Part shown: piece after piece, positions 15,694-34,308 of the stretch
How positions within the stretch are numbered: the first letter of the stretch is position 1
How the letters are laid out: each line of letters opens with the position of its first letter
NCBI GenBank assembly: GCA_036253035.1
Contig: GCA_036253035.1_4123.1
Source: a phage
DNA length: 64,000 nucleotides
Direction: 5' to 3' (one strand)
Notes under the pieces: model-generated
What the model was told of the DNA's origin: nothing
Database searches by the model: none
The model's input: the letters and a program-made list of their open reading frames with translations, nothing else
Position numbers and translations under genes: made by a program

Positions 15694-15903
15694 TTAATCC
15701 TTCGTTACGCTAACGATTATCTGTGTATCCCCGTAGTCCTGCCATACTTCCACGCCATCCGTCGCCCTGGTTAGTCGTGCTGTCATCTGCTTAACAGTCT
15801 TAGGCTTTAGTGGAACCTGTTGCAGTACTGTACGCATAGCATCACTGACGTTATCATGTACGCCAGCAATAGTACCTAGAACGCTGTATACTGTATAGAA
15901 CAT
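15694..15903 (-). CDS. hypothetical protein (69 aa)
   Basis: ATG with AGGAGG RBS 8 nt upstream. Confidence 0.6.
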   Translation of the reverse strand: MFYTVYSVLGTIAGVHDNVSDAMRTVLQQVPLKPKTVKQMTARLTRATDGVEVWQDYGDTQIIVSVTKD

Positions 15904-15971
15904 ATGTATGCCCTCCTGATATAGTTAAGGCCGCTAGAGAGCGGCCTATGATGTTTGGTGATGTGTAATGC

Positions 15972-16373
15972 TTACAGCCCTAAGATAGTGCGTGCTTCGT
16001 TACGTTCCGTCCATAGCTGCATGATGTGAGCAAGTAAGTCCTTACTAATGTATCCGGTGTTCATAGCTTCACGGATAGATACATCATAAGCACCGAACCC
16101 CGTGCGAACGATACGCACATCATTTAGGTTAGTGTTATAGATACCGCCAAGATCAACGGCTTCGAATACTGCATCAACTGAATACTCATTGTTACCATCG
16201 TTGAAGTTTTCTAGTGCAATAGTATTGGATACCGCCCAACGTTTGCAGTTTCCAATGATGCGGCATTGTTCCGGTTGGAGAGTGCCATTACTTACAGCGT
16301 ACTCCAGTGCATCTTTACCAAAAGTCCGAGCCAGTACTAAAACGTCAGCGAAGGAAGTGATTGAGAAGGTCAT
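15972..16373 (-). CDS. hypothetical protein (133 aa)
   Basis: Start moved to ATG of MTFSITSF with AAGGAG RBS; track N-terminal extension runs through 5' hairpin. Confidence 0.6.
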   Translation of the reverse strand: MTFSITSFADVLVLARTFGKDALEYAVSNGTLQPEQCRIIGNCKRWAVSNTIALENFNDGNNEYSVDAVFEAVDLGGIYNTNLNDVRIVRTGFGAYDVSIREAMNTGYISKDLLAHIMQLWTERNEARTILGL

Positions 16374-16462
16374 GATAAAACTCCTTAATTTAGGAGGGAG
16401 AACCATTTCCCCCTCTCTATGTAAAACATTATACTTGATTCTAAGTACAATGCAAGTACTTT

Positions 16463-16789
16463 TTACATTTTAATTCCTGGATTCAGGTAACGATGTGATC
16501 CGTATTCTGGATCGGTTTCGGTCCAGTACTGTAAATCGATAGTACCTTTAGCGTTAATCTTGTCTACCAGCTTATTCATCTTACTGTAGACTACTTCGCT
16601 AGGGATGTAGTGTAATCCTTTATTATAGAAGTAGTGGTTAGCTTCACTATCGTTTAAGATATAGCGTGCACCGTTTGCGGTTTGTGCAACAATGAAAGAG
16701 TATTCTACTTCCCGATCATTACCATCAACAGTAATGCGGTCGAAATTGGTACGGATGAAAGCTTTAACGATAGCGATTGAAGTACTCAT
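16463..16789 (-). CDS. hypothetical protein (108 aa)
   Basis: ATG with AGGAG RBS; upstream GC hairpin and TTGACA promoter. Confidence 0.6.
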   Translation of the reverse strand: MSTSIAIVKAFIRTNFDRITVDGNDREVEYSFIVAQTANGARYILNDSEANHYFYNKGLHYIPSEVVYSKMNKLVDKINAKGTIDLQYWTETDPEYGSHRYLNPGIKM

Positions 16790-16889
16790 GGTGAATCTCC
16801 TAACTTTGTGGGCCGTCGCACCATTGCCGCCCTACGAGATACATTATTGCAGTACTGATATACTTTGTCAATACTTTTTCTATTAAAAT

Positions 16890-17105
16890 TTATTTACAGA
16901 ACTGTAGCCCGACTGTGTTCGGATAGTACACACATCTTTCACGCTTACCGCTAAACGCAGATATCCAGGATAATTTGTATGCCACTGGTTCCGGTGCAAG
17001 AGGATTATTTGAATAATCGAGAACTTTAACAATTAAACGGTCCCCAACATACCAGCCAGTTGACTCTTTGATACGGTCGATAATTTCTTGTTTGGTTAAC
17101 GCCAT
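16890..17105 (-). CDS. hypothetical protein (71 aa)
   Basis: Start moved to ATG of MALTKQEI; track GTG start lies inside 5' hairpin. Confidence 0.5.
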   Translation of the reverse strand: MALTKQEIIDRIKESTGWYVGDRLIVKVLDYSNNPLAPEPVAYKLSWISAFSGKRERCVYYPNTVGLQFCK

Positions 17106-17322
17106 TTTATATCTCGCTCTTTTGGAGGTGGGCTGCACTATTGCCGCCCTACGAGATACATTATCTCAGTACTGATATACTTTGTCAATACTTTTTTTGA
17201 AATAGTTTTGAGTACTGGCATTACATCCACCAGCAGATAGTTACTCACCGTTATTAACTATCTTATAGATACTTCTCTGCACCCTGTGGGCTAGTTTTTG
17301 TCTATGCGTATATAATAGCAAA

Positions 17323-17352
17323 GGGACTGACCGGAGTCAATCCCTTTTTTTT
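17323..17352. terminator. intrinsic terminator hairpin (GGGACTGACCGGAGTCAATCCC + T8) with embedded minus-strand TTGACT-N17-TATTAT
   Basis: 9-bp stem with one mismatch, CGGA loop, T-run on plus side; member of 6-copy element family. Confidence 0.55.
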
Positions 17353-17363
17353 ATTCTTTTTTG

Positions 17364-17564
17364 TTAGATGATTCTCCAATCTTCTACCAGGATTTTAATA
17401 TACCGTACCAGTGATTCGAGTGATTCCACTTCCCGATAATCGGTAGCCGTTTGCACTGTACAAGTACAGCCGATCAAGCCATTGCCAAGCTCTTTGATCT
17501 GTACATCGATGCAGTTGGCTTTTGCTTCATTCAGTACTGCAACCAATTCGTTAGCGATTGACAT
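17364..17564 (-). CDS. hypothetical protein (66 aa)
   Basis: ATG with AGGAG RBS; 5' hairpin GCGGGAGAACTATTCCCCCGC and promoter upstream. Confidence 0.6.
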   Translation of the reverse strand: MSIANELVAVLNEAKANCIDVQIKELGNGLIGCTCTVQTATDYREVESLESLVRYIKILVEDWRII

Positions 17565-17652
17565 AATGTTTTACTCCTAAAGGTGCGGGAGAACTATTCC
17601 CCCGCTCTATGTAAAACATTATACATTATCTTGTAGTACTGTCAAATAGTTT

Positions 17653-17910
17653 TTATGAAATATCTTCGATATAGTCGGCCCATGTCATTTGTTCAGTACT
17701 ATCTAGTGCACCAGGATTATTTGGATCAAACCATTCGCCATCCCCTAAGTACATTGCAGCCGCTACCGCTTTATAGCCATTATAGGCGTTATTCCACTGC
17801 ATAGCACGATAGATACGGCCTTTGATTGGTGTCTGTACTGGTAATGTTTTATGGTCTTCTACGTAGGCCATAGCTTGAGGATTTACCCGATATTGTGTGA
17901 ACTGTTCCAT
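17653..17910 (-). CDS. hypothetical protein (85 aa)
   Basis: Start moved to ATG of MEQFTQYRV with AAGGGGA RBS; TTGACA-N17-TGTAAT upstream. Confidence 0.55.
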   Translation of the reverse strand: MEQFTQYRVNPQAMAYVEDHKTLPVQTPIKGRIYRAMQWNNAYNGYKAVAAAMYLGDGEWFDPNNPGALDSTEQMTWADYIEDIS

Positions 17911-17985
17911 TATGTTTCCCCTTGTAGTTAGTAAAGTTATTACATCAGTACTATCACGCATTGTCAATAGTACTGAAATAAAACT

Positions 17986-18210
17986 TTAGATTAGATTATT
18001 GATGCCGTTGATGGTAGACTCGCTTTCTTCTTTCTCCCATTGGCGGTAATACTTCCATGCTTCATGATAGGTGGCGATCAGTTCATCTTTTTGATCCTGA
18101 GTACATGCCAGTACTGAATCACTGTAAGCGGTGTTATAGATAGAATCAAATGATTTCTTCTCTTCTGCCAGGGTAGCTACTTCCCGCATCAGTTCATCAA
18201 AGTTAGCCAT
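17986..18210 (-). CDS. hypothetical protein (74 aa)
   Basis: ATG with AAGGAG RBS; 5' hairpin GGGGGAGGATATCTCCCCC. Confidence 0.6.
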   Translation of the reverse strand: MANFDELMREVATLAEEKKSFDSIYNTAYSDSVLACTQDQKDELIATYHEAWKYYRQWEKEESESTINGINNLI

Positions 18211-18293
18211 TTTAGTACTCCTTATTAGTGGGGGAGGATATCTCCCCCTATGTAAAACATTATACTTTGTTTTACTTACAATGCAAGTACTTT

Positions 18294-18485
18294 TTAAATT
18301 TTATTTCCGATATAGTCCGGCCTGTTCTTTTCGGTCATACGCTTAAGCATTTTTTGCATATGGCTTATTGCTTGTAGTGTATCCTCTTCCAGCGATGAAT
18401 CAAGATAATCAGGATCATTCTTCACCTTACAATGATTATGATAGCGTAGTACTGCCAGTACTTTTTTAACTTCTTCTACTGTCAT
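18294..18485 (-). CDS. hypothetical protein (63 aa)
   Basis: Start overlaps stop of upstream gene (ATGA). Confidence 0.5.
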   Translation of the reverse strand: MTVEEVKKVLAVLRYHNHCKVKNDPDYLDSSLEEDTLQAISHMQKMLKRMTEKNRPDYIGNKI

Positions 18486-18754
18486 AATAAGTATTCCACT
18501 TCGTTTGCTTTCAGGTTAGTATCAATCATCAGTGGTTTTTTGTAGTCCACAAAACGATTAGTTTTCTCGATAGCGAAGCCCATATAATCCAGTTTGCTTA
18601 CAGTACATTCATTCTTAAAAACTTCTTTCGCTGCATTGATGGCTGATTCAATTGATAACCGCCCATCTAAATTAATGTTACCAAATGATCCACCAGCAGA
18701 AGTAGGATTACCGTTCATATCTTTAATAATCATAGTAGCGGAGTAGCTGGACAT
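18482..18754 (-). CDS. hypothetical protein (90 aa)
   Basis: ATG downstream of promoter and hairpin. Confidence 0.6.
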   Translation of the reverse strand: MSSYSATMIIKDMNGNPTSAGGSFGNINLDGRLSIESAINAAKEVFKNECTVSKLDYMGFAIEKTNRFVDYKKPLMIDTNLKANEVEYLL

Positions 18755-18776
18755 AATTTTGTTTCCTTTTATTGGT

Positions 18777-18836
18777 GGGGAGAGCTATTCTCCCCTTGAT
18801 GTAAACTATTATACAGTACTGATATACTTTGTCAAT
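18777..18836 (-). promoter_or_regulatory. early-type promoter (TTGACA-N16-TATAAT) plus 5'-proximal GC stem-loop
   Basis: -35 at 18831-18836, -10 at 18809-18814, hairpin GGGGAGAGCTATTCTCCCC at 18777-18795 about 7 nt after predicted TSS; no U tract follows. Confidence 0.6.
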
Positions 18837-18838
18837 AC

Positions 18839-19060
18839 TTAATTACGTTTAAAATGATATGTACCGTTATCATCCTGTACGCCCCATACTGATTTACCAT
18901 CAACACCAGTGAAGCCGGATTGTAATTCAATATGGAAACCGTTAGCATCAACGACGAAAACTTTTTTATTTTCATCCCGATAGCATTGATATTCTTCACC
19001 TGCTTTAAATGCTGCATCATTCAGAAGATTTGAAGCGTGAACGCAGGTCATAGTAGTCAT
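18839..19060 (-). CDS. hypothetical protein (73 aa)
   Basis: Start moved to ATG of MTTMTCVHAS with AAAAGGA RBS; track extension runs through hairpin. Confidence 0.55.
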   Translation of the reverse strand: MTTMTCVHASNLLNDAAFKAGEEYQCYRDENKKVFVVDANGFHIELQSGFTGVDGKSVWGVQDDNGTYHFKRN

Positions 19061-19248
19061 CGTCTTGATTCCTTTTAGTACCAGGGAGAACCATTTCCCC
19101 CTCTCGATATAAAACATTATACGCTCATTGAGATAGTTTGCAAGTACTTTTTATAAAATAGTTTTCAGTACTGAATACTTATATAATAGATACACTTCCG
19201 CACCCTATGGGTCAGTGAGTTATCTCTCAATGAATATATAATAGCAAA

Positions 19249-19276
19249 GGGACTGACTGGAGTCAATCCCTTTTTT
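19249..19276. terminator. intrinsic terminator hairpin with embedded minus-strand promoter
   Basis: GGGACTGACTGGAGTCAATCCC + T6; same element family as 17323. Confidence 0.5.
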
Positions 19277-19284
19277 AATCTTTT

Positions 19285-19869
19285 TTATCGTGTTATAGTT
19301 ATCGCGTTAACATCACGTTTTTTATAGTACTGATTCCAGATATTGCGGGTTAAACCGTAATCAAGTACTTTAATCAAGCCGTTGCGATCCTGGCCGATAT
19401 TCTGTTTTCTGATATCTCTTATCGTTAGTGTGGATAATGTATCATCAACGTGATTGAGAGCATCAGCGAAATGGTGATGGCGTTCTACCGTATTACGTTT
19501 AATATTGTACTTTAACTCATTGCACGCGTTTACATGCTTTACACTGCCTTTGCTTGCAGTACTCAAACGATCCATAACAATAAACAGATTATCAGGATCG
19601 CATAAATGCATATGCACTTTAGCAAAGTACTGTTTAAGGTGCGGACGGTCATAATCTAAAAAATTCCATACCTTACATTCAGTTTCATTTTGTTCTACAC
19701 CCGCATCACAATTCGCGACCTTAATCACTAACCGATCATTTAAAGCGAATACAATACGGGAAGAACCCGCACCGACGATCTCCAGTCCAGCTAACCGACA
19801 AGCTGAAAGGATCTCTTTGTTGGTTTCCATTGCATGAAGTGAACGGATGAATTTAGTATAGTTACGCAT
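19285..19869 (-). CDS. putative protein kinase-like protein (194 aa)
   Basis: Gly-rich loop GAGSSRIVF, VIKVA lysine, catalytic-loop-like IRDIRKQNI, DFG-like VLDYGL; start moved to ATG of MRNYTKF with AAGGAG RBS. Confidence 0.55.
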   Translation of the reverse strand: MRNYTKFIRSLHAMETNKEILSACRLAGLEIVGAGSSRIVFALNDRLVIKVANCDAGVEQNETECKVWNFLDYDRPHLKQYFAKVHMHLCDPDNLFIVMDRLSTASKGSVKHVNACNELKYNIKRNTVERHHHFADALNHVDDTLSTLTIRDIRKQNIGQDRNGLIKVLDYGLTRNIWNQYYKKRDVNAITITR

Positions 19870-19900
19870 TGTGTTGACTCCTTGAGTTAATGAAACTATA

Positions 19901-20143
19901 TTACAGTACTTTACTATCAATGGCAACTACTTTTTTTACTTGAACTGCGTGGAATACTTCACGCGTATTTTTAGTACTGAATACTTTTGCCGTACCTTGT
20001 TCGACCGCAATACGATAGCGACCGTTAACGTCCACCATATTGATAAAGTCCGGTGTACTGAATGGAGTTACCCGGCATTTAAGAACGGTTAACAGTTCCA
20101 CCAGCGTTGTAGTCTCTTTGATACGTTTTTCTAAAGTAATCAT
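19901..20143 (-). CDS. hypothetical protein (80 aa)
   Basis: Start moved to ATG of MITLEKRI downstream of TTGACA-N17-TACTAT; track extension reads through the promoter. Confidence 0.55.
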   Translation of the reverse strand: MITLEKRIKETTTLVELLTVLKCRVTPFSTPDFINMVDVNGRYRIAVEQGTAKVFSTKNTREVFHAVQVKKVVAIDSKVL

Positions 20144-20196
20144 TTTGTTTTCCCCGTGTTGGTATGCATTCATAGTACTAAAACATTTGAGTACTG

Positions 20197-20451
20197 TCAA
20201 CGTGATATTAGTTTTATTTTTTTATTGTATTGTTGGTGTTCATATAGATTAATTTTTCCAGTACTCTCGATCACTATTCTATTGTTAGTGTCTACATCGA
20301 TAACACGTAGTTTCCCGTTGCTTAACTTCCTGGGTAATAGACTACCATTAATAAACTCATTAGCAAGCTGTACGGCCTTTGTGATGATTCTCTGTGGGGC
20401 TTTATAGTGTACCCGTAATACATTATCGTTTGATAGTTGAACCTTAATCAT
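20197..20451 (-). CDS. hypothetical protein (84 aa)
   Basis: ATG immediately downstream of terminator hairpin. Confidence 0.5.
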   Translation of the reverse strand: MIKVQLSNDNVLRVHYKAPQRIITKAVQLANEFINGSLLPRKLSNGKLRVIDVDTNNRIVIESTGKINLYEHQQYNKKIKLISR

Positions 20452-20463
20452 TTTGTTTATCCT

Positions 20464-20490
20464 ATAAAAAAGGCGGGAACTATTCCCGCC
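20464..20490 (-). terminator. rho-independent terminator (minus strand)
   Basis: GGCGGGAACTATTCCCGCC followed on minus strand by U6; downstream of gene 20514..20909. Confidence 0.6.
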
Positions 20491-20513
20491 GTGTTGTTAG
20501 TACTGCAAAGTTA

Positions 20514-20909
20514 TTAGATAACCTGGCGGCGTTTACTGTATACTGTTACACGGTTTCCTTTACGGTCATGACGGATCTCTTTCTGGTTACGAATCAGTTC
20601 ACTTGGACGCTTAAGGTTTGCCAGGTGATCCGCGTGAGTCCATGCATTTGCGTTAACTGTAACTTCAATATCAGAACCTTTCAAAAAGTCATCTTGAGCG
20701 TTCAGTACTTCAGCCAGTTCTTGAGCTTGCTTTAGTTCTGCTGCTGTAAGTACAGGCTCAGGTGAATTCACAATATCAGAGATCTCTTTGAACTGTACCG
20801 CCCAGCGTTGTCCTTTCGGTGCATCTTTGCCCATGTCTTTAAATGTTTCACCTTCTTCACGGGCAACGATGCGAGCTTGTTCACGGGTAGCGAAGAATTT
20901 AGTAATCAT
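20514..20909 (-). CDS. hypothetical protein; paralog of 33264..33530
   Basis: Shares FATRExARIxAR..TFKDMG..RWAV and C-terminal HDRKGNRVTVYS with 33264 gene; TTGACA-N17-TATAAT upstream. Confidence 0.65.
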   Translation of the reverse strand: MITKFFATREQARIVAREEGETFKDMGKDAPKGQRWAVQFKEISDIVNSPEPVLTAAELKQAQELAEVLNAQDDFLKGSDIEVTVNANAWTHADHLANLKRPSELIRNQKEIRHDRKGNRVTVYSKRRQVI

Positions 20910-21008
20910 GGTGTACATCCTATTAGTTAAGTTAATTAGTACTACAAGTTAGAGTCTATTATAAAGTACTATCTGGGCAATGTCAAATAGTACTTTAAAT
21001 GGATTCTA

Positions 21009-21332
21009 TTACATGTCTTTCTTACGTTTTACATCGTAGTAGCGAACTGTAATTTCTTTGTTGATCTCTTCCTCGATGCGGTGAATAACTTTTTCTTTCG
21101 GGTTGAAACCTATTACAGTTTCTTTAATGATCTCCAAGCCCGTGTATTCGCCTTGTGTACCGTAACCGTAAGTAAAGGTTTCATGTCCCAGGTCTTCCCA
21201 GCGGTCACCAATCAATGCAGACACGTAGCATGAGTGGTAAGTATTGCCGTGGCTATCAGTCCACCGATTAACTTTAATGTCAAAGGAAGTTACAATTTTC
21301 ATTTCTACTTTCTGGGTAAGGATCATAGTCAT
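21009..21332 (-). CDS. hypothetical protein; paralog of 28216..28560
   Basis: Shares GNTY(H/F)S, YGYG and C-terminal DVKRKKD with 28216 gene; AGAGAG RBS. Confidence 0.65.
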   Translation of the reverse strand: MTMILTQKVEMKIVTSFDIKVNRWTDSHGNTYHSCYVSALIGDRWEDLGHETFTYGYGTQGEYTGLEIIKETVIGFNPKEKVIHRIEEEINKEITVRYYDVKRKKDM

Positions 21333-21419
21333 TTTAATTTCTCTCTTTTAGTTAGGAGGGGAACCATTCCCCTGCCTTGATGTAAACTATTATACAGTAC
21401 TAAGATACTTTGTCAATAC

Positions 21420-21695
21420 TTAAGTATTGTAAATGTCGTGAATAGTGATAAAGTTTTTACGACCGTAAACATGTAAATCAGTATCAATGTAGTGCTTATC
21501 AAGTACATCCTCGACGCTTAAAGCCGTGTCGTGAATATCTTCATAGAATTGTGGATCTACAATCTTACTTAAATCATCCGGCGTTAACTTATCATTGAGC
21601 CATTGCACCGCCTGGATATCTGCATCACGTTTCCAGTCTTCCAGGTTAGTAGTCAGTACTTGCTCGATTTCGTTAGCTGTCAGTAGAATCCGCAT
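21420..21695 (-). CDS. hypothetical protein (91 aa)
   Basis: ATG with AAGAGAG RBS; 5' hairpin GTGGGGAACTATTCCCCAC. Confidence 0.6.
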   Translation of the reverse strand: MRILLTANEIEQVLTTNLEDWKRDADIQAVQWLNDKLTPDDLSKIVDPQFYEDIHDTALSVEDVLDKHYIDTDLHVYGRKNFITIHDIYNT

Positions 21696-21784
21696 TTTAA
21701 TTTCTCTCTTTGTTAGGTGGGGAACTATTCCCCACTTGATGTAAAATATTATACAGTACTAAAAACTATTGTCAAACTATTTTA

Positions 21785-21985
21785 TCAAATTGTTTCCCAT
21801 TTCATGTTACCCGCTTTACGCTGTGAAACAGGAATAAACATGTTATTAATGTTACTAATATAACCGACCTGTAAGTCACGCTGTGAACCATACGCCCGAC
21901 TTGCTGCATTTTTAGCACCGCGTTCTGATTTATAAACGCCGCTGGATACTGTAAAGCCTACTACACCGAAAGTAAAATGTTTCAT
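21785..21985 (-). CDS. hypothetical protein (66 aa)
   Basis: ATG with AGAGGA RBS; TTGACA-N16-TATAAT upstream. Confidence 0.6.
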   Translation of the reverse strand: MKHFTFGVVGFTVSSGVYKSERGAKNAASRAYGSQRDLQVGYISNINNMFIPVSQRKAGNMKWETI

Positions 21986-22270
21986 TTTGTATTCCTCTTT
22001 GTGGTTGATGTAAGTATTATACTCGTTTAATTTCTATTGTCAAACTATTTTATCAGGGGAGGTTTTCGTATGTCTTACTCCTGGACTACTTAACGGGGTT
22101 ACTTATTTCGTTCCCCGTCCTGATGTAAAACATTATACTTGATTCTAAGTACAATGCAAGTACTTTTTAAAAATAGTTTTCAGTACTTGATAGTACTAGC
22201 CACCAGCATATAATAGATACATTTATGCACCCTGTGGGTTAGATTGTTTCTATGCATATATAATAGCAAA

Positions 22271-22298
22271 GGGACTGACCGGAGTCAATCCCTTTTTT
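22271..22298. terminator. intrinsic terminator hairpin with embedded minus-strand promoter
   Basis: GGGACTGACCGGAGTCAATCCC + T6. Confidence 0.5.
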
Positions 22299-22306
22299 AA
22301 ATCTTT

Positions 22307-22456
22307 TTAAACTTGTTTTGGGTTGCGATATGTGATAGCGTTCGGGTACATTTGTTTAATGTTATTCCATGCCTGGTTAACATTGTAACCACTTGATCGA
22401 ATCAGTTGGTTACTTCCTACGCCCTGGAACACTACTTCGAATAAGAATTCTTTCAT
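22307..22456 (-). CDS. hypothetical small protein (49 aa, below track cutoff)
   Basis: Manually translated MKEFLFEVVFQG...; start overlaps stop of upstream small ORF. Confidence 0.4.
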   Translation of the reverse strand: MKEFLFEVVFQGVGSNQLIRSSGYNVNQAWNNIKQMYPNAITYRNPKQV

Positions 22457-22623
22457 GCTGCAATCCCCTCTGATTTACCTTTACGCCAGGCGTTAGCCAG
22501 TTCATTACGTTGCCATACATCCAATGCAATGTATAGTTTAGCAGTATCCCCTTTAGGGTATTCGCCAGTAGTGCCTAACCGATAAAACAGATCTTTCAGT
22601 ACTGATAATTCTACTTGGATCAT
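22453..22623 (-). CDS. hypothetical small protein (56 aa, below track cutoff)
   Basis: Manually translated MIQVELSVLKDLFYRLG...; ATGA overlaps on both sides. Confidence 0.4.
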   Translation of the reverse strand: MIQVELSVLKDLFYRLGTTGEYPKGDTAKLYIALDVWQRNELANAWRKGKSEGIAA

Positions 22624-22712
22624 TGTATTACTCCTGATTGTGTTAGTACTTCTACGATGGCATGAATGATCATAAGTACAGCTAACACAACAATCATCGG
22701 ATTCATTTGCAT
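22620..22712 (-). CDS. hypothetical hydrophobic peptide (30 aa)
   Basis: MQMNPMIVVLAVLMIIHAIVEVLTQSGVIQ; AAGGAG RBS 8 nt upstream. Confidence 0.35.
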   Translation of the reverse strand: MQMNPMIVVLAVLMIIHAIVEVLTQSGVIQ

Positions 22713-22729
22713 AAGCTGTACTCCTTCTA

Positions 22730-22942: not shown

Positions 22943-23025
22943 GTTTCTTTCCTCTTAGTGGGGAGAATCATTTCTCCCCTTCATGTAAACTATTATACAG
23001 TACTAGATTACATTGTCAATAGTTT

Positions 23026-23565: not shown

Positions 23566-23644
23566 TTGTCTTTCCTTGTAGTGGGGAGAACTATTCTCCC
23601 CTTCATGTAAACTATTATACAGTACTTAAAACTAAATGCAAGTA

Positions 23645-25366: not shown

Positions 25367-25449
25367 TTTAGTATTCCTTAGTAGTGTAGTTGATAAAAGT
25401 TATTATGCCAGTACTATCAATCATTGTCAATAGTACTGTGATAATATTT

Positions 25450-25662: not shown

Positions 25663-25755
25663 TTTGATTTCTCTCTGTTTGTGGGGAGAACTATTCTCCC
25701 CTTGATGTAACTTATTATACAGTACTATAATCTATTGTCAAACTATTTTTTAATA

Positions 25756-26097: not shown

Positions 26098-26281
26098 GAT
26101 TTGTTTCCTTATTACCAGGGGAAACCGTTTCCCCTTTCGATGTAAAACATTATACGCTTATTGAGATAGTTTGCAAGTACTTTTTAAAAATAGTTTTCAG
26201 TACTCAAACATTATATAATAGATACACTTATGCACCCTGTGGGCTAGTGAGCTATCTCTCAATGAATATATAATAGCAAAA

Positions 26282-26309
26282 TGGCTGACCGGAGTCAACC
26301 ACTTTTTTC
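26282..26309. terminator. intrinsic terminator hairpin (element family variant)
   Basis: GGCTGACCGGAGTCAACC + T6. Confidence 0.45.
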
Positions 26310-26537: not shown

Positions 26538-26690
26538 TCATTTTTTAGCCTGAAAGTAATGTTTAATTTGTGCGGCGGTCAGTGCACAATTACGCAGGAA
26601 GTTTTCTGTATAACTGCGGCGAGTACTGAAAGAGAATTGACCTTTGCCGTTACCGATAGTAACATCAAACCGAGCGTTGTATTGTTTCAT
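26538..26690 (-). CDS. hypothetical small protein (50 aa)
   Basis: Start moved to ATG of MKQYNARF with AGGAGA RBS; track extension runs through hairpin. Confidence 0.5.
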   Translation of the reverse strand: MKQYNARFDVTIGNGKGQFSFSTRRSYTENFLRNCALTAAQIKHYFQAKK

Positions 26691-26776
26691 TTTGATTCTC
26701 CTGTTATTGGGGAGAACCATTTCTCCCCTCTATGTAAAACATTATACGCGTTTAAAAACTAATTGCAAGTATTATT

Positions 26777-27028: not shown

Positions 27029-27110
27029 TATACTTTCCTCGTTAGGTGTAAGGGGAACGTTTTCCCCTTCATGTAAACTATTATACAGTACTAAAAACTA
27101 ATTGCAAGTA

Positions 27111-27257: not shown

Positions 27258-27326
27258 TTCATATTCCTTAATTAGTGGGGAGAATCATTTCTCCCCTTCA
27301 TGTAAAACATTATACGCGTTTAAAAA

Positions 27327-27536
27327 CTAATTGCAAGTACTATTTGAAAGTAAATGCTCATACGCTGCATTAACTACGTTTTCAATAACCGACTGTACAG
27401 AAAGATCCCCCACGTCCTGGCTATAGTAGAAATCGCTTACAGTGGTGTCATCGTATGCAAATACTTTACCAGGTACTGCATCAATCACATACATATTAAC
27501 CTTTAAGATGTCGATCTTATCCTGTACAGTAAGCAT
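27327..27536 (-). CDS. hypothetical protein (69 aa)
   Basis: ATG with AAAGGT RBS, adjacent to upstream stop. Confidence 0.5.
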   Translation of the reverse strand: MLTVQDKIDILKVNMYVIDAVPGKVFAYDDTTVSDFYYSQDVGDLSVQSVIENVVNAAYEHLLSNSTCN

Positions 27537-27541
27537 ATTAA

Positions 27542-28135: not shown

Positions 28136-28215
28136 TTTACTATCCTCTTAATTTGATTTAATTTCTTTCCCCTATGCAGACACTATATCAAAGTATCTGC
28201 ATAAAGTAAAGCTAA

Positions 28216-28560: not shown

Positions 28561-28641
28561 TTTAATTTCCTCTTAGTTGTCTTGATAAAATCTATTATGC
28601 CAGTACTATCAATCTATGTCAATAGTACTGTGATAATAATT

Positions 28642-28854: not shown

Positions 28855-28936
28855 TTTCTTTTTCCTCTTAGTTGTCTTGATAAAATCTATTATGCCAGTA
28901 CTATCAATCTATGTCAATAGTACTGTGATAATAATT

Positions 28937-29080
28937 TTACTTACTTTTTGCTTTCTTTACAGCTTCCACCTGGTCGGCCCACTCTTTACCCCATACTTGA
29001 GCGTTATAGTGATACTGACAAAGAGCAACGCCCCGTTTCAAACCAGTGATAGATTTTTTACCACATTGACAAGTTTTCAT
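28937..29080 (-). CDS. hypothetical Cys-containing small protein (47 aa, below track cutoff)
   Basis: Manually translated MKTCQCGKKSITGLKRGVALCQYHYN...; 5' hairpin and promoter upstream. Confidence 0.45.
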   Translation of the reverse strand: MKTCQCGKKSITGLKRGVALCQYHYNAQVWGKEWADQVEAVKKAKSK

Positions 29081-29166
29081 TTTTAGTTTCCTCTTAGTGG
29101 GGAGAATCATTTCTCCCCTTGATGTAATGTATTATACTTTATCTGATTTACTTTGCAAGTACTTTT

Positions 29167-29394: not shown

Positions 29395-29463
29395 TTTTTA
29401 AATCCTTCTCAGTAGTTGATGTAAAATATTATACAGTACTTAAAACTATTGTCAAACTATTTT

Positions 29464-29848: not shown

Positions 29849-29869
29849 AGCCCACTGTATAAGTGGGCT
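29849..29869 (-). terminator. rho-independent terminator (minus strand)
   Basis: AGCCCACTTATACAGTGGGCT followed on minus strand by U6; downstream of gene 29891..30373. Confidence 0.65.
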
Positions 29870-29890
29870 AGTGATTCAGTACTTTAAATG

Positions 29891-30373
29891 TTATGCTTCA
29901 ATTTTGCGGTGAGATTCGATCCATTCCTCGCGAGTCATACCGCTTTCTTTGATTGCATCCAGTACTACCGCAATGCAGTTACCGCGTACAGGAATCAAAT
30001 GTTCTTCCCCGTTATCAAGGACAACAGTAACACGTTCTTGAATCCATTTTTTAGGCTTAGATTCCGGCTTATCTTCACCGTACTTAACCGCCAGGGCTTT
30101 ATGTGCCATTTCAATAACCACTTCCAGATCTAAACCAGACACCGCCGCCTGAATACTTTCTATTGTTGCTTGCAGTTCTGCTTCACGGGCTTTTTTCTGT
30201 TCTTCCAGTTCTGCTACCTTTTTGGCTTGTAGTTCTTTCGCTTCACTGTAAGCAATGTTAAAATTGTTGCGTACTGCTTTCATGGTATCATTATCCAGGT
30301 CAGCCAGCAATTCAGCAGCAATAACAGTATCGTTAGAAATCAGTGCTTTCAGAAATGATTTTACATTAGCCAT
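29891..30373 (-). CDS. hypothetical coiled-coil-rich protein (160 aa)
   Basis: Start moved to ATG of MANVKSFL with GAGGA RBS; long conserved leader upstream. Confidence 0.6.
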   Translation of the reverse strand: MANVKSFLKALISNDTVIAAELLADLDNDTMKAVRNNFNIAYSEAKELQAKKVAELEEQKKAREAELQATIESIQAAVSGLDLEVVIEMAHKALAVKYGEDKPESKPKKWIQERVTVVLDNGEEHLIPVRGNCIAVVLDAIKESGMTREEWIESHRKIEA

Positions 30374-30574
30374 TTTATAAATCCTCAATTAAAGTTTAAG
30401 TTAGTTTATCAAAGTTTGTTTGACGTGTCCAGTTTTTCATTCGACTTACTGGCGGTCTACTTAATGTTCCCCGTCTTGATGTAATACATTCTACGCTTTT
30501 CCCTGGTAATGTCAACTACTTTTTTAAAACTATTTTCAAAGTATACCAGTACTACGATACTACAAAAACAAAAA

Positions 30575-30595
30575 AGCCCACTGTATAAGTGGGCT
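30575..30595 (-). terminator. rho-independent terminator (minus strand)
   Basis: Identical hairpin to 29849 copy, U-run on minus strand; downstream of gene 30613..30912. Confidence 0.65.
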
Positions 30596-30612
30596 AGTGA
30601 TTCAGTACTATA

Positions 30613-30912
30613 TTATAAACAATTAATTACGCCAGTGAATGTAACTTTCTCTGTATCCATTACAGTGACAGAACCGCGTTTACTTTTTGCATCGTAATAG
30701 ATGGTCGTGCTACCCTGATCATCTTCTTCATGGTACGGGCCATTAGCAAACATTGCAGGGGCCAGTTCCAGGGATTTGGTAACGATCTCAGCCGTTTCCT
30801 CGTTAGTCATTGCAACAGTGCACTGAATGAATTTTTCTTTCGGTACATCAACGGAAGCGTTAACAGCGAAAGAGGAAACAGATAAAGCCAGGGCGATGAT
30901 TGCAGTTTTCAT
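30613..30912 (-). CDS. putative secreted/periplasmic protein with N-terminal signal peptide
   Basis: MKTAIIALALSVSSFAVNA = basic n-region, hydrophobic core, AxA-like cleavage site; TTGATA-N16-TATAAT. Confidence 0.6.
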   Translation of the reverse strand: MKTAIIALALSVSSFAVNASVDVPKEKFIQCTVAMTNEETAEIVTKSLELAPAMFANGPYHEEDDQGSTTIYYDAKSKRGSVTVMDTEKVTFTGVINCL

Positions 30913-31024
30913 TTGTATATCCTTTGTTAGTACTAGGGAGTATTCCCGATTAGATGTAAAACATTATACGCATTTAAAAACTATTATCAAGTACTTTAAT
31001 ATAAAAGTATTTGAAAAAAAAGTC

Positions 31025-31053
31025 TTGACAACTGCATCCAGTACTGGCATAAT
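31025..31053 (+). promoter_or_regulatory. plus-strand sigma70-like promoter (TTGACA-N17-CATAAT)
   Basis: -35 at 31025-31030, -10 at 31048-31053; downstream transcript would carry dyad ACCCACAGGGTGC and end at hairpin 31134-31151. Confidence 0.5.
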
Positions 31054-31059
31054 ACTTAC

Positions 31060-31160
31060 ATAAAGACGAGATAGTCACTAACCCACAGGGTGCATAGATC
31101 CGTCTATTAAATGATTCAGTACTGCAAAATAAAGGGGATCGTTTGATCCCCTCTGTATTA
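31060..31160 (+). ncRNA. candidate small non-coding RNA (~100 nt)
   Basis: Region between plus-strand promoter and hairpin/U-rich tract; no ORF; contains family dyad motif. Confidence 0.3.
31134..31151. terminator. bidirectional terminator hairpin
   Basis: GGGGATCGTTTGATCCCC flanked by A/T-rich tracts on both sides; downstream of minus gene 31158..31379. Confidence 0.5.
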
Positions 31161-31379
31161 CTTAGTAAGATATAAACAAAAATCACCTTTCTTTGCTACG
31201 CCGCCAGTGTAACGCGATGAATAGTTAGAAACGTCTTGCACTTCTGCAATGACGAGCGTATCATCATTTATTTCGTCGCAAAAACATACTGCGGGATCTT
31301 CTACGCCAATATTGTCAGCATGTGCCCGCATAGATTTAACCAGTGCTTCAAGCTGGGAAAGAGTAGTGATATTAGCCAT
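31158..31379 (-). CDS. hypothetical protein (73 aa)
   Basis: ATG with AAGGAG RBS; hairpin; TTGCAA-N16-TATAAT. Confidence 0.6.
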   Translation of the reverse strand: MANITTLSQLEALVKSMRAHADNIGVEDPAVCFCDEINDDTLVIAEVQDVSNYSSRYTGGVAKKGDFCLYLTK

Positions 31380-31466
31380 TGTAAAACTCCTTATTAGTGG
31401 GGAGAACCATTTCTCCCCTTGATGTAAACTATTATACAGTACTGGAAACTAATTGCAAGTACTTTT

Positions 31467-31670
31467 TTAATTTAATTGCTTTAAAACATAATCAAAGACA
31501 CCACGCACATCATTGATCATCGCCTGGCGGTTAGCAGGTAACGCATCAGGATCGCCACTATCCCAGGCATTAATGAAGCCACCTAAATCATGGAATACTT
31601 TATTCCGTAACCCGATCAACTGCAATTCTTTTTCTTCAAGCTCTTTGATACGTTTAATTAAATCACTCAT
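31467..31670 (-). CDS. hypothetical protein (67 aa)
   Basis: Start moved to ATG of MSDLIKRI with GAGGA RBS. Confidence 0.55.
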   Translation of the reverse strand: MSDLIKRIKELEEKELQLIGLRNKVFHDLGGFINAWDSGDPDALPANRQAMINDVRGVFDYVLKQLN

Positions 31671-31687
31671 TAGATAATCCTCAGTAC

Positions 31688-31972
31688 TCAATTGTAAGAT
31701 CCGCAACGGTCGCAGTAGTGCCCGTCCTCGTCATCTTCTACCACTTGCCCGATGAAATGATCTACTTTCGCTTTCAGGTTATTATAATCGTTTTCTACTT
31801 CCTTTAAACGCTTCTGGTAGTATTCCAGTGCTTTAAGATATGCCGCATCAGTAGTTTTCTCCTGCATAGCTAAATTCATGCCACGCGTTTCATCGTACAG
31901 CCAAAAACCATCGGTGCACTCACTTATAGACAATGACTTGCTTAACACATTGTACTTTATTACTTTACTCAT
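31688..31972 (-). CDS. hypothetical protein with C-terminal CxxC (94 aa)
   Basis: ATG with GAGGA RBS; ends ...HYCDRCGSYN. Confidence 0.6.
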   Translation of the reverse strand: MSKVIKYNVLSKSLSISECTDGFWLYDETRGMNLAMQEKTTDAAYLKALEYYQKRLKEVENDYNNLKAKVDHFIGQVVEDDEDGHYCDRCGSYN

Positions 31973-32057
31973 TAGATAATCCTCAGTAAAGGCGGGAACT
32001 ATTCCCGCTCTCGATATAAAGTATTATACGTTAATCTAATTACTTTGCAAGTACTTT

Positions 32058-32294
32058 TTAGTGCTTTTTATAAAACATCTCAGCGGTGATATTTTTACCC
32101 GTTGGTTGTACTTTATCCAGGATCTTTTGGTGTGCACTACGCCCGAAAGAATAAGAACCGTAAACCGTTAGCCAGTAGTCGCCATTTTGGTTTACATGTA
32201 CCGCACAATAGGGAACGCCCCGCGAATCGTCACCAATGAAGTGTGATACTGTACCCGTTACGTTTGGTGTTGTAGTTTTGATTTGTTCGATCAT
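32058..32294 (-). CDS. hypothetical protein (78 aa)
   Basis: Start moved to ATG of MIEQIKTT with AGGAG RBS. Confidence 0.55.
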   Translation of the reverse strand: MIEQIKTTTPNVTGTVSHFIGDDSRGVPYCAVHVNQNGDYWLTVYGSYSFGRSAHQKILDKVQPTGKNITAEMFYKKH

Positions 32295-32352
32295 TTCTCT
32301 TACTCCTGGGATATAGGCGGGAACCATTCCCCGCCATTGATTCAGTACTGAA

Positions 32353-32964
32353 TTAATATGCGATAGATTCTACTACATCGTCGATAACGTTAAATTGATA
32401 TTCGTTACCCTCGATCAGTGCTACAATGTTTTCAGTAGTAAACTGGTCTTCATAAGCATTTTCTAAATCACGGTACAGCTTACAAGATAATTCTCGGATA
32501 GTATCAGTCAGTAAGTTTTCCAGATCCTCAGCTAATGCAGCCTGTTTTACAGTTAAATCAGTGTAGCGAGTATCAACGCAACCGCCTACCGTGTTTTCGT
32601 GTGCATAACGCGATTGGGAACGTTCTACACTCATTTCCAAATCATCTTCGTTCAACAGGTGACGGATGGAACGATATTTCGTTAACGCCTTAACCTTGCG
32701 TAAAAACTTCTCAGCGTCAACGTGGTCAGTACTGATTGATGCACCGTCACCTTGCGACCAAAAACCACTGTATTGCAATTCAGCTTCATCTATGCCGTAT
32801 TCTGGTAGTACTGTTTCTTTATAGTATTCCAGTACTGATTCAGCAAAGAAATTATCCTCACTTGCACGTTCCCGATCCCGAACCAGTTCGATAGCCGCCG
32901 TTTGTTGTTCTGCGTTCAGTTCAGAAAAAGCCATAACAAAAGTAGTAGTAGTGATAGTTTTCAT
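32353..32964 (-). CDS. hypothetical acidic protein (203 aa)
   Basis: Start moved to ATG of MKTITTTT with GAGGGT RBS; D/E-rich; conserved long leader upstream. Confidence 0.6.
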   Translation of the reverse strand: MKTITTTTFVMAFSELNAEQQTAAIELVRDRERASEDNFFAESVLEYYKETVLPEYGIDEAELQYSGFWSQGDGASISTDHVDAEKFLRKVKALTKYRSIRHLLNEDDLEMSVERSQSRYAHENTVGGCVDTRYTDLTVKQAALAEDLENLLTDTIRELSCKLYRDLENAYEDQFTTENIVALIEGNEYQFNVIDDVVESIAY

Positions 32965-33263
32965 TTTGTAACCCTCATTCATTAGTTGATGTAAGTATTA
33001 TACGCTTTTACTTTCTATTGTCAAACTATTTTATCAGGGGAGTTTTTCATACGTCTTACTCCTGGACTACTTAACAGGGAGTTACTTATTTCATTCCCCG
33101 TCCTGATGTAAAACATTATACGCCTTTAAACATAGTTTGCAAGTACTTTTTGAAAATAGTTTTTAGTACTTTCCTATAGATACACTCCCGCACCCTATGG
33201 GCTATCGCCTTGTGTCCGGCTTGTAAGTATTATCTCACTAAGCCGGATAACGGTCAAGTACTT

Positions 33264-33530
33264 TTATTCAAGTACTGCAATCTTTTTAGTACTGTACACT
33301 GTAACGCGGTTGCCCTTGCGGTCGTGCTTTATTTCTACCACGCGACGCGATACACTATCAGGACGCTTTAAAGCAGATAGCCAGTACTGAATTGATCGGG
33401 CTGTACTTTGCTTTACTACGGCCCAACGTTTACCACGTTCAGATTGTACGCCCATATCTTTAAACGTCGCCCCGTCCTGGCGTGCGGCAATCCGAGCAAG
33501 TTCACGCGTTGCAAAGTATATAATATTCAT
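33264..33530 (-). CDS. hypothetical protein; paralog of 20514..20909
   Basis: Start moved to ATG of MNIIYFATREL; shares FATRE..ATFKDMG..HDRKGNRVTVYS. Confidence 0.6.
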   Translation of the reverse strand: MNIIYFATRELARIAARQDGATFKDMGVQSERGKRWAVVKQSTARSIQYWLSALKRPDSVSRRVVEIKHDRKGNRVTVYSTKKIAVLE

Positions 33531-33612
33531 GCTGTTACCCCTATCGTTGTTGTATAAAAGAAATCTATTATAAAGTACTATCACCGTGCAATAGTACTTT
33601 TAATCTATTCTC

Positions 33613-33852
33613 TTACATTCCAACCATCGCCGCACGGATCGCAGTAGTGCTATACTTAAAGCCGTCCGGTGTTTTATCTTGTCCAGTCTGTTCTAAAAAT
33701 AGCATCATATGACGGGCCGCATCATTACGATTAGTGTTAGCGGCAATAAAGTCCTGGGCCAACCGGTATAATGATTCGTCGTTATTAATCCAAAGGCTTA
33801 CATTCCATTGAGTTTTGTTTTTGTGACCTAAGAACATTTTTGATTTAGCCAT
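33613..33852 (-). CDS. hypothetical protein (79 aa)
   Basis: Start moved to ATG of MAKSKMFLG with AGAGGA RBS. Confidence 0.55.
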   Translation of the reverse strand: MAKSKMFLGHKNKTQWNVSLWINNDESLYRLAQDFIAANTNRNDAARHMMLFLEQTGQDKTPDGFKYSTTAIRAAMVGM

Positions 33853-33945
33853 TTTTTTAATCCTCTTATATAGTGGGGAACTATTCCCCACCTGATGTAA
33901 AACATTATACGCTTTTAAACTTAGTTTGCAAGTACTTTATTAAAC

Positions 33946-34308
33946 TTATTCGTAAATCTTTCCACTATCAGCCCATACCAGGAAACGAGGCATATTATCC
34001 CATGCATCTTGTTTTAAGTTTAAGCCGTGCAATACTTCTGTACTTTCCATTCCTGGTACTGGCTTGCTATACACTGCAAACATTTCGCCCATGTACTGAT
34101 AAGCCATCGTTAAATCAGTCTGGATCATCTTATGTATCATTGCGTCCAGCATTGCAGTAGCTGCATACTGTTCACGCTTAAGCGGTAACATTGCAATCAA
34201 TTCCCGATAAGCTGCAATGTGAATCCGTACAGTCTCAGCGGGAAGATCTTTCATCTCTTCACGGAAAGAAACCAGGTTAAGCATGATAGTATTGATTTGA
34301 GTCGCCAT
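33946..34308 (-). CDS. hypothetical protein (120 aa); first gene of early minus-strand block
   Basis: ATG with AAGAGA RBS; hairpin CGGGAGCGTATCCCCCG; TTGCAA-N16-TAGAAT. Confidence 0.6.
   Translation of the reverse strand: MATQINTIMLNLVSFREEMKDLPAETVRIHIAAYRELIAMLPLKREQYAATAMLDAMIHKMIQTDLTMAYQYMGEMFAVYSKPVPGMESTEVLHGLNLKQDAWDNMPRFLVWADSGKIYE

Follow-up and report, generated by a model that had tools for sequence, protein, structure and literature searches.

Cassettes known as PeSLs (promoter-early stem-loops), which join sigma70-like early promoters to GGGG...CCCC stem-loops, flank orphan genes in T4-like phages and mediate their insertion, deletion and exchange (Arbiol et al. 2010, PMC2839356; Comeau et al. 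2014, PMC4122927). In the related jumbo phages CBB and GAP32, RpoD-like promoters with UP-like elements have been predicted, and consensus TTGACA/TATAAT promoters stand before short hypothetical genes in or next to the terminal repeat, read there as an early region (PMC5259590). Here we describe an array of early-gene cassettes, built on host-type promoters and in part carrying a GC-rich hairpin, in a 64,000-nt stretch of phage DNA (the window; GenBank assembly GCA_036253035.1, contig GCA_036253035.1_4123.1). Coordinates, with or without the prefix w, are positions in the window unless another genome is named. A reading made from the letters alone (the sequence-only reading) had drawn attention to w15694-34308. 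Judged by its sequence, the window is that of an Asteriusvirus, a 121Q/PBECO4-like jumbo coliphage: megablast of the region returned Asteriusvirus genomes, with 121Q matching at 97-98% identity, in pieces only, and BF17 spanning 83% of the region at 90% identity. On balance we find it probable that the region is an early regulon carried in a direct terminal repeat (DTR) and assembled from PeSL-like cassettes, with an RNA hairpin in the 5' untranslated region (5' UTR) and an operator-like AGTACT palindrome.

Alignment to the ends of the fEgEco12 genome places the array in a DTR of ~20.4 kb at w15542-35953 (minus strand). The right physical end of fEgEco12 (record position 374,733) corresponds to w15542 and the start of its right DTR to about w35953, and w15694-34308 therefore lies entirely within the repeat. 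The DTR of fEgEco12 is 20,993 bp, confirmed by PhageTerm and restriction digests (PMC13070987), and that of Sharanji is 20,668 bp (PMC11895373); the matching stretch is labelled 'Direct Terminal Repeats' in vB_Ec-M-J and annotated as terminal repeat in Klebsiella phage Muenster. The repeat in the window holds ~60 small genes, with every gene and promoter on the minus strand, and these genes are annotated as hypothetical nearly throughout BF17, 121Q, G17, JP4 and fEgEco12. Among 10 early-region proteins scanned against Pfam, two alone, a DksA/TraR zinc finger and a GNAT acetyltransferase, passed the curated cut-offs, and a kinase-like match was weak and sub-threshold, so that the gene content is that of the plastic, orphan-rich regions in which PeSLs occur. 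Rfam gave nothing meaningful (whole window at gathering thresholds; the repeat at E <= 5), and a tRNA search found none. The region would serve as an immediate-early (host-takeover) region, its ~60 small, mostly orphan genes standing under strong promoters that unmodified host sigma70 RNA polymerase would each read. Phage T5 has a pre-early region of this kind, with host-takeover genes under very strong sigma70 promoters in a long DTR that is the first DNA into the cell, and the likeness extends to gene type, promoter type and placement. The T5 repeat, of ~10 kb, holds few genes; we know of no two-step DNA transfer in Asteriusvirus, and of no hairpin cassette or AGTACT-like motif in the T5 repeat.

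On the minus strand, a relaxed scan of w15,500-36,000 gave 45 promoters of sigma70 type for about 60 genes, and in an independent scan all 12 positions of TTGACA-N16/17-TATAAT were matched twelve times on the minus strand and never on the plus. The early-gene architecture with consensus host-type promoters proposed by the sequence-only reading is borne out by these numbers, and its promoters are real; its wording that nearly every small gene has one is too strong at about 45 for about 60. The low-stringency total was 95 against 68 ± 9 in shuffles, a mild enrichment only, and because this generic count is only slightly above shuffles the case was built on high-scoring matches and strand bias. 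A/T-rich stretches lie upstream of the promoters, as they do at the strong sigma70-like early promoters of PeSLs. For CBB and GAP32, 18 such promoters are reported against the 45 found here, with no cassette or recombination role described, and the words stem-loop, hairpin and AGTACT each occur 0 times in that text (PMC5259590). Promoters are not treated in the papers on RaK2 and Sharanji.

The distance from -10 to ATG is ~30-35 nt at promoters without a hairpin and ~50-55 nt at those with one, a 5' UTR ~20 nt shorter in the former. Listed open reading frames (ORFs) are in places over-extended through the cassette, as had been noted from the sequence: the ATG taken as the start of those at w29110, w26720 and w16406 belongs to the hairpin loop (AAATGA/AAATGG), and the ORF at w19117 begins within TATAATG.

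A perfect or near-perfect GC hairpin (stem 6-9 bp, loop 3-5 nt) follows 19 of the 45 promoters and an imperfect one follows 2 more, so the hairpin that the sequence-only reading had described as a regular sequel to the promoter is present at 42-47% of them. It starts 10-15 nt (mode 12) past the -10 and ends ~18-20 nt ahead of the ATG, at the edge of the ribosome footprint. Over the 38 nt past the predicted start, the minimum free energy (MFE) was -8 kcal/mol or lower at 27 of 45 promoters, a level reached by 13.8% of windows drawn at random from the region; z was below -2 at 20 of 45. The example from which the hairpin was first described, GGGGAGAACTATTCTCCCC, corresponds to w25683-25701 and w23583-23601 read on the plus strand. 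At the sequence level none of the 19 has the U tract directly after a GC hairpin that marks an intrinsic terminator; a terminator scan, which listed the true terminators apart, flagged none of them save marginally w34335-34351. An intrinsic-terminator reading was rejected for want of the U tract, in agreement with the original observation, and the terminating or attenuating property of PeSL stem-loops likewise has no sequence-level counterpart in the 19. Two further identities were discarded: a lambda-type nut/boxB site (boxA plus boxB), which has a short stem with a conserved purine-rich pentaloop for an N protein, since the 3-5-nt loops here are variable and the fastest-changing part, and an RNase III site, since stems of only 6-9 bp are too short.

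Together with five relatives, the window yielded 40 distinct promoter-proximal hairpin sequences, in which the stems vary and are always paired (for example GGGGAGAA/TTCTCCCC, GTGGGGAA/TTCCCCAC, GCGGGAA/TTCCCGC, AGGGGAAA/TTTCCCCT and GAGGGGAA/TTCCCCTC). Internal pairs that are not Watson-Crick comprise, on the sense strand, G.T in 9 sequences, one T/C, one G/A and zero A.C; selection acting on the opposite strand would show A.C and is therefore disfavoured. Because these 40 hairpins had been selected for pairing, orthologous hairpins were compared too, with 14 changes in the 3-5-nt loops against 12 events in the roughly four-fold longer stems, so that per nucleotide the loops change ~4x faster. 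Seven of the stem events keep the pair, six by a change to G.U on the sense strand and one by a double change from G-C to A-U. Pairs were counted with anchored scripts, as a MAFFT alignment of 66 cassette 5' UTRs had misaligned the two arms of the hairpin. Hairpins also follow the promoters of Klebsiella phage Muenster; their sequences are quite different, and some are formed around CAGTACTG. Across genera it is position and structure that are kept rather than sequence. This pattern fits hairpins that act as sense-strand RNA structures in which the stem would matter and the loop would not. Several Muenster 5'-UTR hairpins, at 3873, 10037, 14126 and 14490 of that genome, are built around the AGTACT motif (e.g. 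GGGAATCAGTACTGATTCCC, GAGATTCCAGTACTGGAATCTC).

Promoter, initial transcribed sequence, hairpin and Shine-Dalgarno sequence (SD) form dispersed repeat families of 13-16 copies and 76-105 nt, and a GC-rich stem-loop lies within such a conserved intergenic unit of ~100 bp in 19-21 of the 45 cassettes. Homology to BF17, 121Q, G17 and JP4 ends inside cassettes in 58 of 89 cases (30 of 47 clusters), with cassettes occupying 21% of the region (binomial p ~3e-19), and these ends of high-scoring segment pairs are the indel and replacement junctions that characterise PeSLs. Several of the remaining ends lie <=30 nt from a cassette or in weaker promoters that the scan missed. The 87-nt repeats at w28566-28652 and w28861-28947 are 100% identical and flank one gene, a suitable substrate for the excision of mini-circles that, in PeSLs, recombination between flanking cassettes produces. 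The units also cross family borders. A73 (Vequintavirinae, 142 kb) has single genes and cassettes in common with the window at 83-86% nucleotide identity, and its early region holds the same TTGACA-N16-TATAAT-ACATTACATCAA-GGGGAGAATAGTTCTCCCC units with the hairpin GGGGAGAA...TTCTCCCC. An 85-nt cassette (that at 25683-25741) matches 47 phage records, nearly all of them, among the matches listed, without an annotated feature beneath, and is found also in W70, in the Phapecoctavirus phages nepoznato and muut and in Muenster (Alcyoneusvirus). A scan of IMG/VR for the promoter-hairpin pattern returned 121Q alone and no further diversity.

We propose a unit of 75-105 bp in which an AT-rich upstream stretch would lead into the promoter, followed by a conserved initial transcribed sequence (TTTACATCAA), a GC hairpin that may be absent and the SD; any gene behind the unit would gain autonomous strong early expression. 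The cassette appears to be the only homology among otherwise unrelated neighbours, and recombination between cassettes would therefore insert, delete and swap single genes, both within the lineage and across families. The sequence-only reading had missed this PeSL-like role in recombination, as it had the DTR location, the sharing with unrelated families and the genome-wide selection on AGTACT described below.

Set against PeSLs, the array agrees in its ~100-bp intergenic repeat with AT-rich region, strong sigma70-like early promoter, GGGG...CCCC stem-loop and SD, in its concentration among orphan genes of plastic regions and in marking the indel and replacement junctions of close relatives. 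Four copies are even of classical build, their stem-loop extending over the -35; these GGGATTGACTCCGGTCAGTCCC copies alone have a stem-loop upstream of, within or just before the start site, a placement not found in the 19 main hairpins. It differs in that most stem-loops lie past the predicted start, are transcribed into the 5' UTR and have no U tract; in that it fills the 20-kb DTR of a jumbo phage, whereas PeSLs lie in internal hyperplastic regions; and in that the cassettes are common to several phage families and have AGTACT superimposed. The array is accordingly a variant of the PeSL kind rather than a plain member, because the stem-loop of its main class forms part of the transcript of its own promoter and is no terminator.

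The palindrome AGTACT occurs in the window in 237 copies against 21.7 expected: 124 in the DTR (6.6 expected), 96 in w35,954-64,000 (9.5 expected) and 17 in w1-15,541 (5.1 expected), the last with near-empty stretches. The Muenster repeat holds 160 (7.3 expected), and A73 with 7 (4.3 expected) shows no enrichment; in the DTR, w35,954-64,000 and the Muenster repeat the excess is 10-22-fold. Copies fall 63, 31 and 50 times in the three reading frames and 93 times between genes. In alignments with three relatives AGTACT is kept in 87% of cases and composition-matched hexamers in 66% (odds ratio 3.7), and synonymous choices that create it exceed codon-usage expectation for Ser-Thr (62 vs 18), Val-Leu (48 vs 9) and Tyr (29 vs 5). 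These figures point to selection on AGTACT at the DNA level, synonymous sites included. The flanks extend the palindrome towards TTCAGTACTGAA. Two stretches, w1-8000 and 12000-15541, are AGTACT deserts with 0-2 copies per 4 kb against 12-28 per 4 kb elsewhere, and may be recently acquired or differently constrained DNA.

At the promoters AGTACT takes fixed positions. AGTACTG abuts the -10 (motif at -7/-8 from the first -10 base) at 18 of 45, AGTAC shares its T with the first base of the -35 (at -27) at 16 of 45, with 3 more at -30, and 33 of 45 promoters have at least one copy at these places, the two positions being 20 bp apart. Nearly every early promoter of Muenster has the full form AGTAC-TTGACA-N9-CAGTACTG-TATAAT. 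The placement of (C)AGTACTG against the -10 described in the sequence-only reading is thus sharply fixed, at 40% of promoters; its interpretation as a promoter spacer element fails on the 237 copies, which extend into coding DNA in all frames and to both sides of the region. That AGTACTG is nevertheless part of the promoter, read by RNA polymerase as an extended -10 or as a spacer element raising strength, gains from the AGTACTGG-CATAAT class, in which TG stands in true register and compensates a non-consensus -10, and TG is in the extended -10 register, at -15/-14 and one base before the -10 hexamer, at 7 promoters in all (this class and G/AATAAT). At the 12 promoters of the larger AGTACTG-TATAAT class TG is one base out of register, and the extended -10 reading applies to a minority of promoters only. 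The hexamer is moreover fused to the -35 elsewhere, stands beside terminators, occurs ~140 times inside genes in all frames and is selected at synonymous sites, and the homologous cassettes of A73 carry AGTGCTGG in its place with no AGTACT enrichment. We give a promoter part little credence on these grounds. A SlmA-binding site (GTRAGYRCTYAC; strong G1, T2, A4, G5, purine 3) was also rejected, since the 64 kb contain no full site and a single relaxed one, and the base before AGTACT is mostly C or T (73%) and seldom G (8%).

At early promoters the palindrome would be locked at about -39..-34 and -19..-14, bracketing the -35, and two palindromes 20 bp apart in this arrangement look like operators of a promoter-occluding dimeric protein. 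From position and symmetry, AGTACT is most likely bound by a dimeric protein able to occlude early promoters, and its density along the genome suggests a more general role too. Mycobacteriophage L5 'stoperators', P1 C1 operators and SPO1 TF1 sites are repeated short motifs that overlap early promoters and through which one phage protein silences. By analogy AGTACT is a short motif present many times per genome, also over early promoters; it differs in that those sites number tens per genome and are asymmetric or longer, while AGTACT occurs ~2-6 times per kb, is palindromic and lies mostly within genes. Tentatively, AGTACT (TTCAGTACTGAA) could be the recognition site of an undescribed system common to Asteriusvirus and Alcyoneusvirus, a DNA-binding protein or a modification enzyme that is phage-encoded or delivered with the virion. 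A literature search on AGTACT with phage or jumbo-phage terms found no mention of the motif. Beside terminator or intergenic hairpins, AGTACTGAATCA(c/a)T stands ~2-8 nt upstream at w29849-29886, 30575-30612, 31112 and 32316-32350 (minus), and AGTACT therefore accompanies transcript ends as well as promoters.

For the hairpin, the position of the transcription start is decisive. E. coli RNA polymerase usually starts 7-8 nt past the -10, at a purine after a pyrimidine, and this rule, applied to the conserved TTTAC-A in the sequence past the -10, (A/G)NTTTACATCAA, predicts a start at the A of CAT; 5 nt (AUCAA) would then be unpaired before the stem, or 6 (CAUCAA) with a start one base earlier. 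The 5' stem-loops of ompA, papA and T7 class III/phi10, which stabilise their mRNAs, leave no more than 1-2 nt between the 5' end and the stem. Like them, the hairpins here are GC-rich, near the mRNA 5' end, upstream of the SD and free of a U tract, and they could be stabilisers of the same sort, blocking RppH and the 5'-monophosphate sensor of RNase E and lengthening the half-life of early mRNAs. The nearly fixed distance between hairpin and -10 (10-15 nt, mode 12) is expected if the relation to the 5' end matters, and a sense-strand RNA structure without a U tract suits the finding that 5'-terminal stem-loops stop RppH (PMC8833179). RppH and RNase E, however, need a minimum of 2 unpaired nt with a preference for >=3 (PMC8833179), and the predicted 5-6, which follow from the -10 spacing and from a start that is itself a prediction, would exceed the limit of fewer than 2 at which a stem-loop protects and set the hairpins apart from the ompA, papA and T7 elements. 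Scanning RNase E was hardly impeded by a simple stem-loop away from the 5' end (PMC11194081), and a hairpin of the same family occurs also without a promoter (w32316-32335) and as a terminator (w20472-20490). Classical 5'-end protection, the function put forward in the sequence-only reading, is therefore plausible but weakened: the hairpin does lie in the predicted 5' UTR and behaves as an RNA-level structure, yet the protection would fail unless the real start lies several bases further downstream. We hold it as a possibility short of an even chance, and stabilisation more broadly as the leading guess rather than an established function.

T4 RegA, RegB and gp43 act at RNA operators or processing sites, and large lytic phages commonly need co-ordinated early shut-off; a phage RNA-binding protein or endoribonuclease could likewise use the hairpin for joint shut-off or processing of early transcripts. 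The stem is more uniform than pairing demands (in almost all of the 40 variants a G-run leads into GAA, and TTC into a C-run) and it ends ~18-20 nt before the ATG, at the ribosome-footprint edge, as such a site might. We think this unlikely nonetheless, given loops that are free to vary (14 changes; UAG, AUGA, AUGG, ACGG, CAC), Muenster stems of quite different sequence, the same hairpin in an unrelated family (A73), which would require the same factor there, and the lack of a candidate protein in Pfam scans of window proteins. A DNA-level feature without RNA function, either a recombination hotspot or protein target or a passenger spreading with the cassette, would account for breakpoints that cluster in cassettes and for hairpins that are absent from half of the promoters; it is distinctly unlikely, as the one-sided pair-keeping changes are all sense-strand G.U, equivalent to an A.C mismatch on the other strand, stems change ~4x more slowly than loops per nucleotide, and in Muenster stems of different sequence hold the same position. 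Least probable, in our estimate, is that the hairpin attenuates or terminates transcription from upstream cassettes and so limits a build-up of readthrough. PeSL stem-loops do stop transcription in a reporter (PMC2839356), the family member with a T-run at w20472-20490 is a canonical terminator and the four GGGATTGACTCCGGTCAGTCCC copies are terminator-like, but the 19 promoter-proximal hairpins have no U tract and, lying downstream of the predicted start of their own promoter, would equally stop their own transcript.

The reading we prefer is that the hairpin is a modulatory, RNA-level element of the 5' UTR, an optional module of ~20 nt that would sit between start site and ribosome site. It would most likely raise or standardise expression, by slower decay, by shielding the ribosome site from upstream readthrough RNA, or both.

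Several points count against this account of the region. In PeSLs the stem-loop mostly precedes the promoter or falls within it, and termination of transcription was demonstrated for such stem-loops (PMC2839356), whereas 19 of ~24 stem-loops here come after the predicted start and have no U tract; by this position and this lack their role must differ from that in PeSLs. About half of the promoters work without a hairpin, whose contribution would then be modulatory at most. Among the orthologous stem changes 5 break a pair, and the G.U evidence is concentrated on few stem positions and may represent few independent events. Clustering of breakpoints is in part expected, since no other intergenic DNA is as well conserved as the cassettes and BLAST alignments run on into them. 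The use of the promoters, their start sites and their 'early' status are predictions from sequence, and we found no transcription start, timing or half-life data in the literature for the phage or its close relatives. No AGTACT-binding protein was identified, and Pfam scans of 20 window proteins gave no DNA- or RNA-binding candidate.

The 19 promoter-hairpin units, all on the minus strand, fall into a few promoter forms. AGTAC-TTGCAA-N16-TATAAT is found at 33872-33931 (hairpin GGTGGGGAATAGTTCCCCACT, start codon 33852), 31992-32050 (GCGGGAATAGTTCCCGC, 31972), 29099-29158 (GGGGAGAAATGATTCTCCCC, true start near 29080, with the listed ORF from the loop ATG 29110), 27277-27336 (GGGGAGAAATGATTCTCCCC, 27257), 26117-26176 (AGGGGAAACGGTTTCCCCT, 26097) and 19083-19143 (AGGGGGAAATGGTTCTCCCT, with one sense-strand G.U, 19060). 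The unit at 34335-34393 differs in its -10, TAGAAT (hairpin CGGGGGATACGCTCCCG at 34335-34351, MFE -13.4, z -4.5, start codon 34308), and that at 26709-26768 reads TTGCAA-N16-TATAAT (hairpin GGGGAGAAATGGTTCTCCCC, true start near 26690, listed ORF from the loop ATG 26720). AGTAC-TTGCAT-N16-TATAAT stands at 18230-18286 (GGGGGAGATATCCTCCCCC, start codon 18210) and 16394-16455 (GAGGGGGAAATGGTTCTCCCTC, true start near 16370, listed ORF from the loop ATG 16406). Both AGTACT sites are present at 31399-31458 (AGTAC-TTGCAA-ttagtttcc-AGTACTG-TATAAT, hairpin GGGGAGAAATGGTTCTCCCC, start codon 31379), 27050-27107 (AAGGGGAAAACGTTCCCCTT, 27028) and 23583-23641 (AGTAC-TTGCAT-...-AGTACTG-TATAAT, GGGGAGAATAGTTCTCCCC, 23565). 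TTGACA-...-AGTACTG-TATAAT occurs at 25683-25741, with the spacer atagattat and the hairpin GGGGAGAATAGTTCTCCCC first used as the example (start codon 25662), and at 22960-23019 (GGGGAGAAATGATTCTCCCC, 22942), 21717-21775 (GTGGGGAATAGTTCCCCAC, 21695), 21357-21416 (AGGGGAATGGTTCCCCT, 21332) and 18777-18835 (GGGGAGAATAGCTCTCCCC, 18754). The remaining unit, at 17585-17645, reads TTGACAGTACT...-TATAAT with hairpin GCGGGGGAATAGTTCTCCCGC, which contains a G.U, and start codon 17564.

Two related promoters at 16843-17188 (minus; -35 at 17188 and 16871) have the form TTGACA-aagtatatc-AGTACTG-(G/A)ATAAT, and each is followed by the imperfect hairpin GGGCGGCAATAGTGC(A)GCCC. Promoters without a hairpin, likewise on the minus strand, include class C, cAGTACTA-TTGACA-tagattgat-AGTACTGG-CATAAT with TG in true extended -10 register, at 28889-28917; this promoter sits in the 87-nt repeat, 100% identical to the copy around 28594-28622, and the pair flanks a single gene. 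Class C recurs at 25402-25430. A perfect promoter with the AGTACTG spacer and a short 5' UTR (-10 to ATG 33 nt) lies at 29428-29455, and a perfect one lacking both AGTACT and hairpin at 22016-22043. The classical PeSL-type composite, at 17312-17347 (minus), has a terminator-like hairpin AAAGGGATTGACTCCGGTCAGTCCCTTT whose stem contains the -35 TTGACT and whose T-rich tail supplies the -10 TATTAT, and further copies are at 19238-19273, 22260-22295 and 26270-26305. The same-family hairpin without a promoter, GGCGGGGAATGGTTCCCGCC at 32316-32335 (minus), lies between two genes and is preceded by TTCAGTACTGAATCA; GGCGGGAATAGTTCCCGCC at 20472-20490 (minus) is followed by TTTTTT and is a true intrinsic terminator. 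Outside the array, promoter-like sites at w13824 and w11329 (minus) are preceded by TGAAACAC, which resembles the TGAAACG of the 'divergent RpoD-like' (middle-type) promoters of CBB and GAP32 (PMC5259590).

The repeat also carries Chi (GCTGGTGG), on the minus strand at w17234, 18697, 20105, 22207, 23472, 24922, 29762, 34554 and 35403 and on the plus strand at w35415. These are 9 sites co-oriented on the DTR sense strand and 1 opposite, ~0.5 kb from the left boundary, where 0.11 are expected per strand, and the pattern is repeated in BF17, G17, fEgEco12 and Muenster (7+1) and is missing from A73. Under the orientation rule of Chi relative to RecBCD, the arrangement fits protection of both linear genome ends. 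A conserved non-coding unit directly past a promoter, often a terminator-embedded one, is found on the minus strand near w17290, 19211, 22238, 24590, 26243 and 33201 and on the plus strand near w31082, 34675 and 34892, and Muenster has at least 10 copies. It consists of a short variable stem, an invariant CCC-N3/4-GGGTGC and then usually GTATCTAT, with an alternative pairing between a 5' segment (AUAGA, AGACG, GAGAUA) and a 3' segment (UCUAU, CGUCU, UAUCU). Its orientation to the promoter is constant, it is kept between Asteriusvirus and Alcyoneusvirus, it has no Rfam match, and this second, CCC/GGG unit, of which RNAalifold recovered only the invariant CCC/GGG stem, may be a leader or small RNA. 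In the distant relative PA5oct, two highly expressed non-coding RNAs lie in the terminal repeat (PMC7318152). A promoter with a ~90-nt unit and no normal gene occurs at w33142-33019 and w22159-22038 (minus) and from 2988 in A73; it shows long-range pairing of ACAUCAGGACGGGGAA...CUCCCCUGAU, an SD and a 9-codon mini-ORF (MKNSPDKIV) whose stop TGA sits inside the -35 TTGACA of the next promoter. In the JP4 record ~2-3 kb of the early array is present twice (1-3215 and 19920-22725, ~19.9 kb apart), which suggests a repeated terminal-repeat segment and is relevant when cassettes per genome are counted from database records. Beyond the DTR, at w39978-57290 (plus), a tandem array holds ~14 paralogous genes of ~300-400 aa, and those scanned have RCC1-like or Kelch beta-propeller repeats.

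For annotation, the cassette model would correct gene starts and define an early regulon in jumbo phages, whose records show no promoter in the stretches examined and call some gene starts inside the cassette. About 45 natural variants of a compact strong unit of promoter, 5' UTR and ribosome-binding site, with or without a hairpin, are of use for engineering. Phage genomes normally avoid palindromes, and AGTACT is for that reason the feature a specialist would least expect; at ~3.7 copies per kb in the window, extrapolation to a genome of ~350 kb gives roughly a thousand sites. If the proposed protein exists, the same AGTACT-binding factor would mark or organise the genome and could silence the whole DTR early region at once. 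For the evolution of these phages, the array offers a clear case of natural plug-and-play gene cassettes and would extend PeSL-type shuffling to jumbo phages and to exchange across families within one host.

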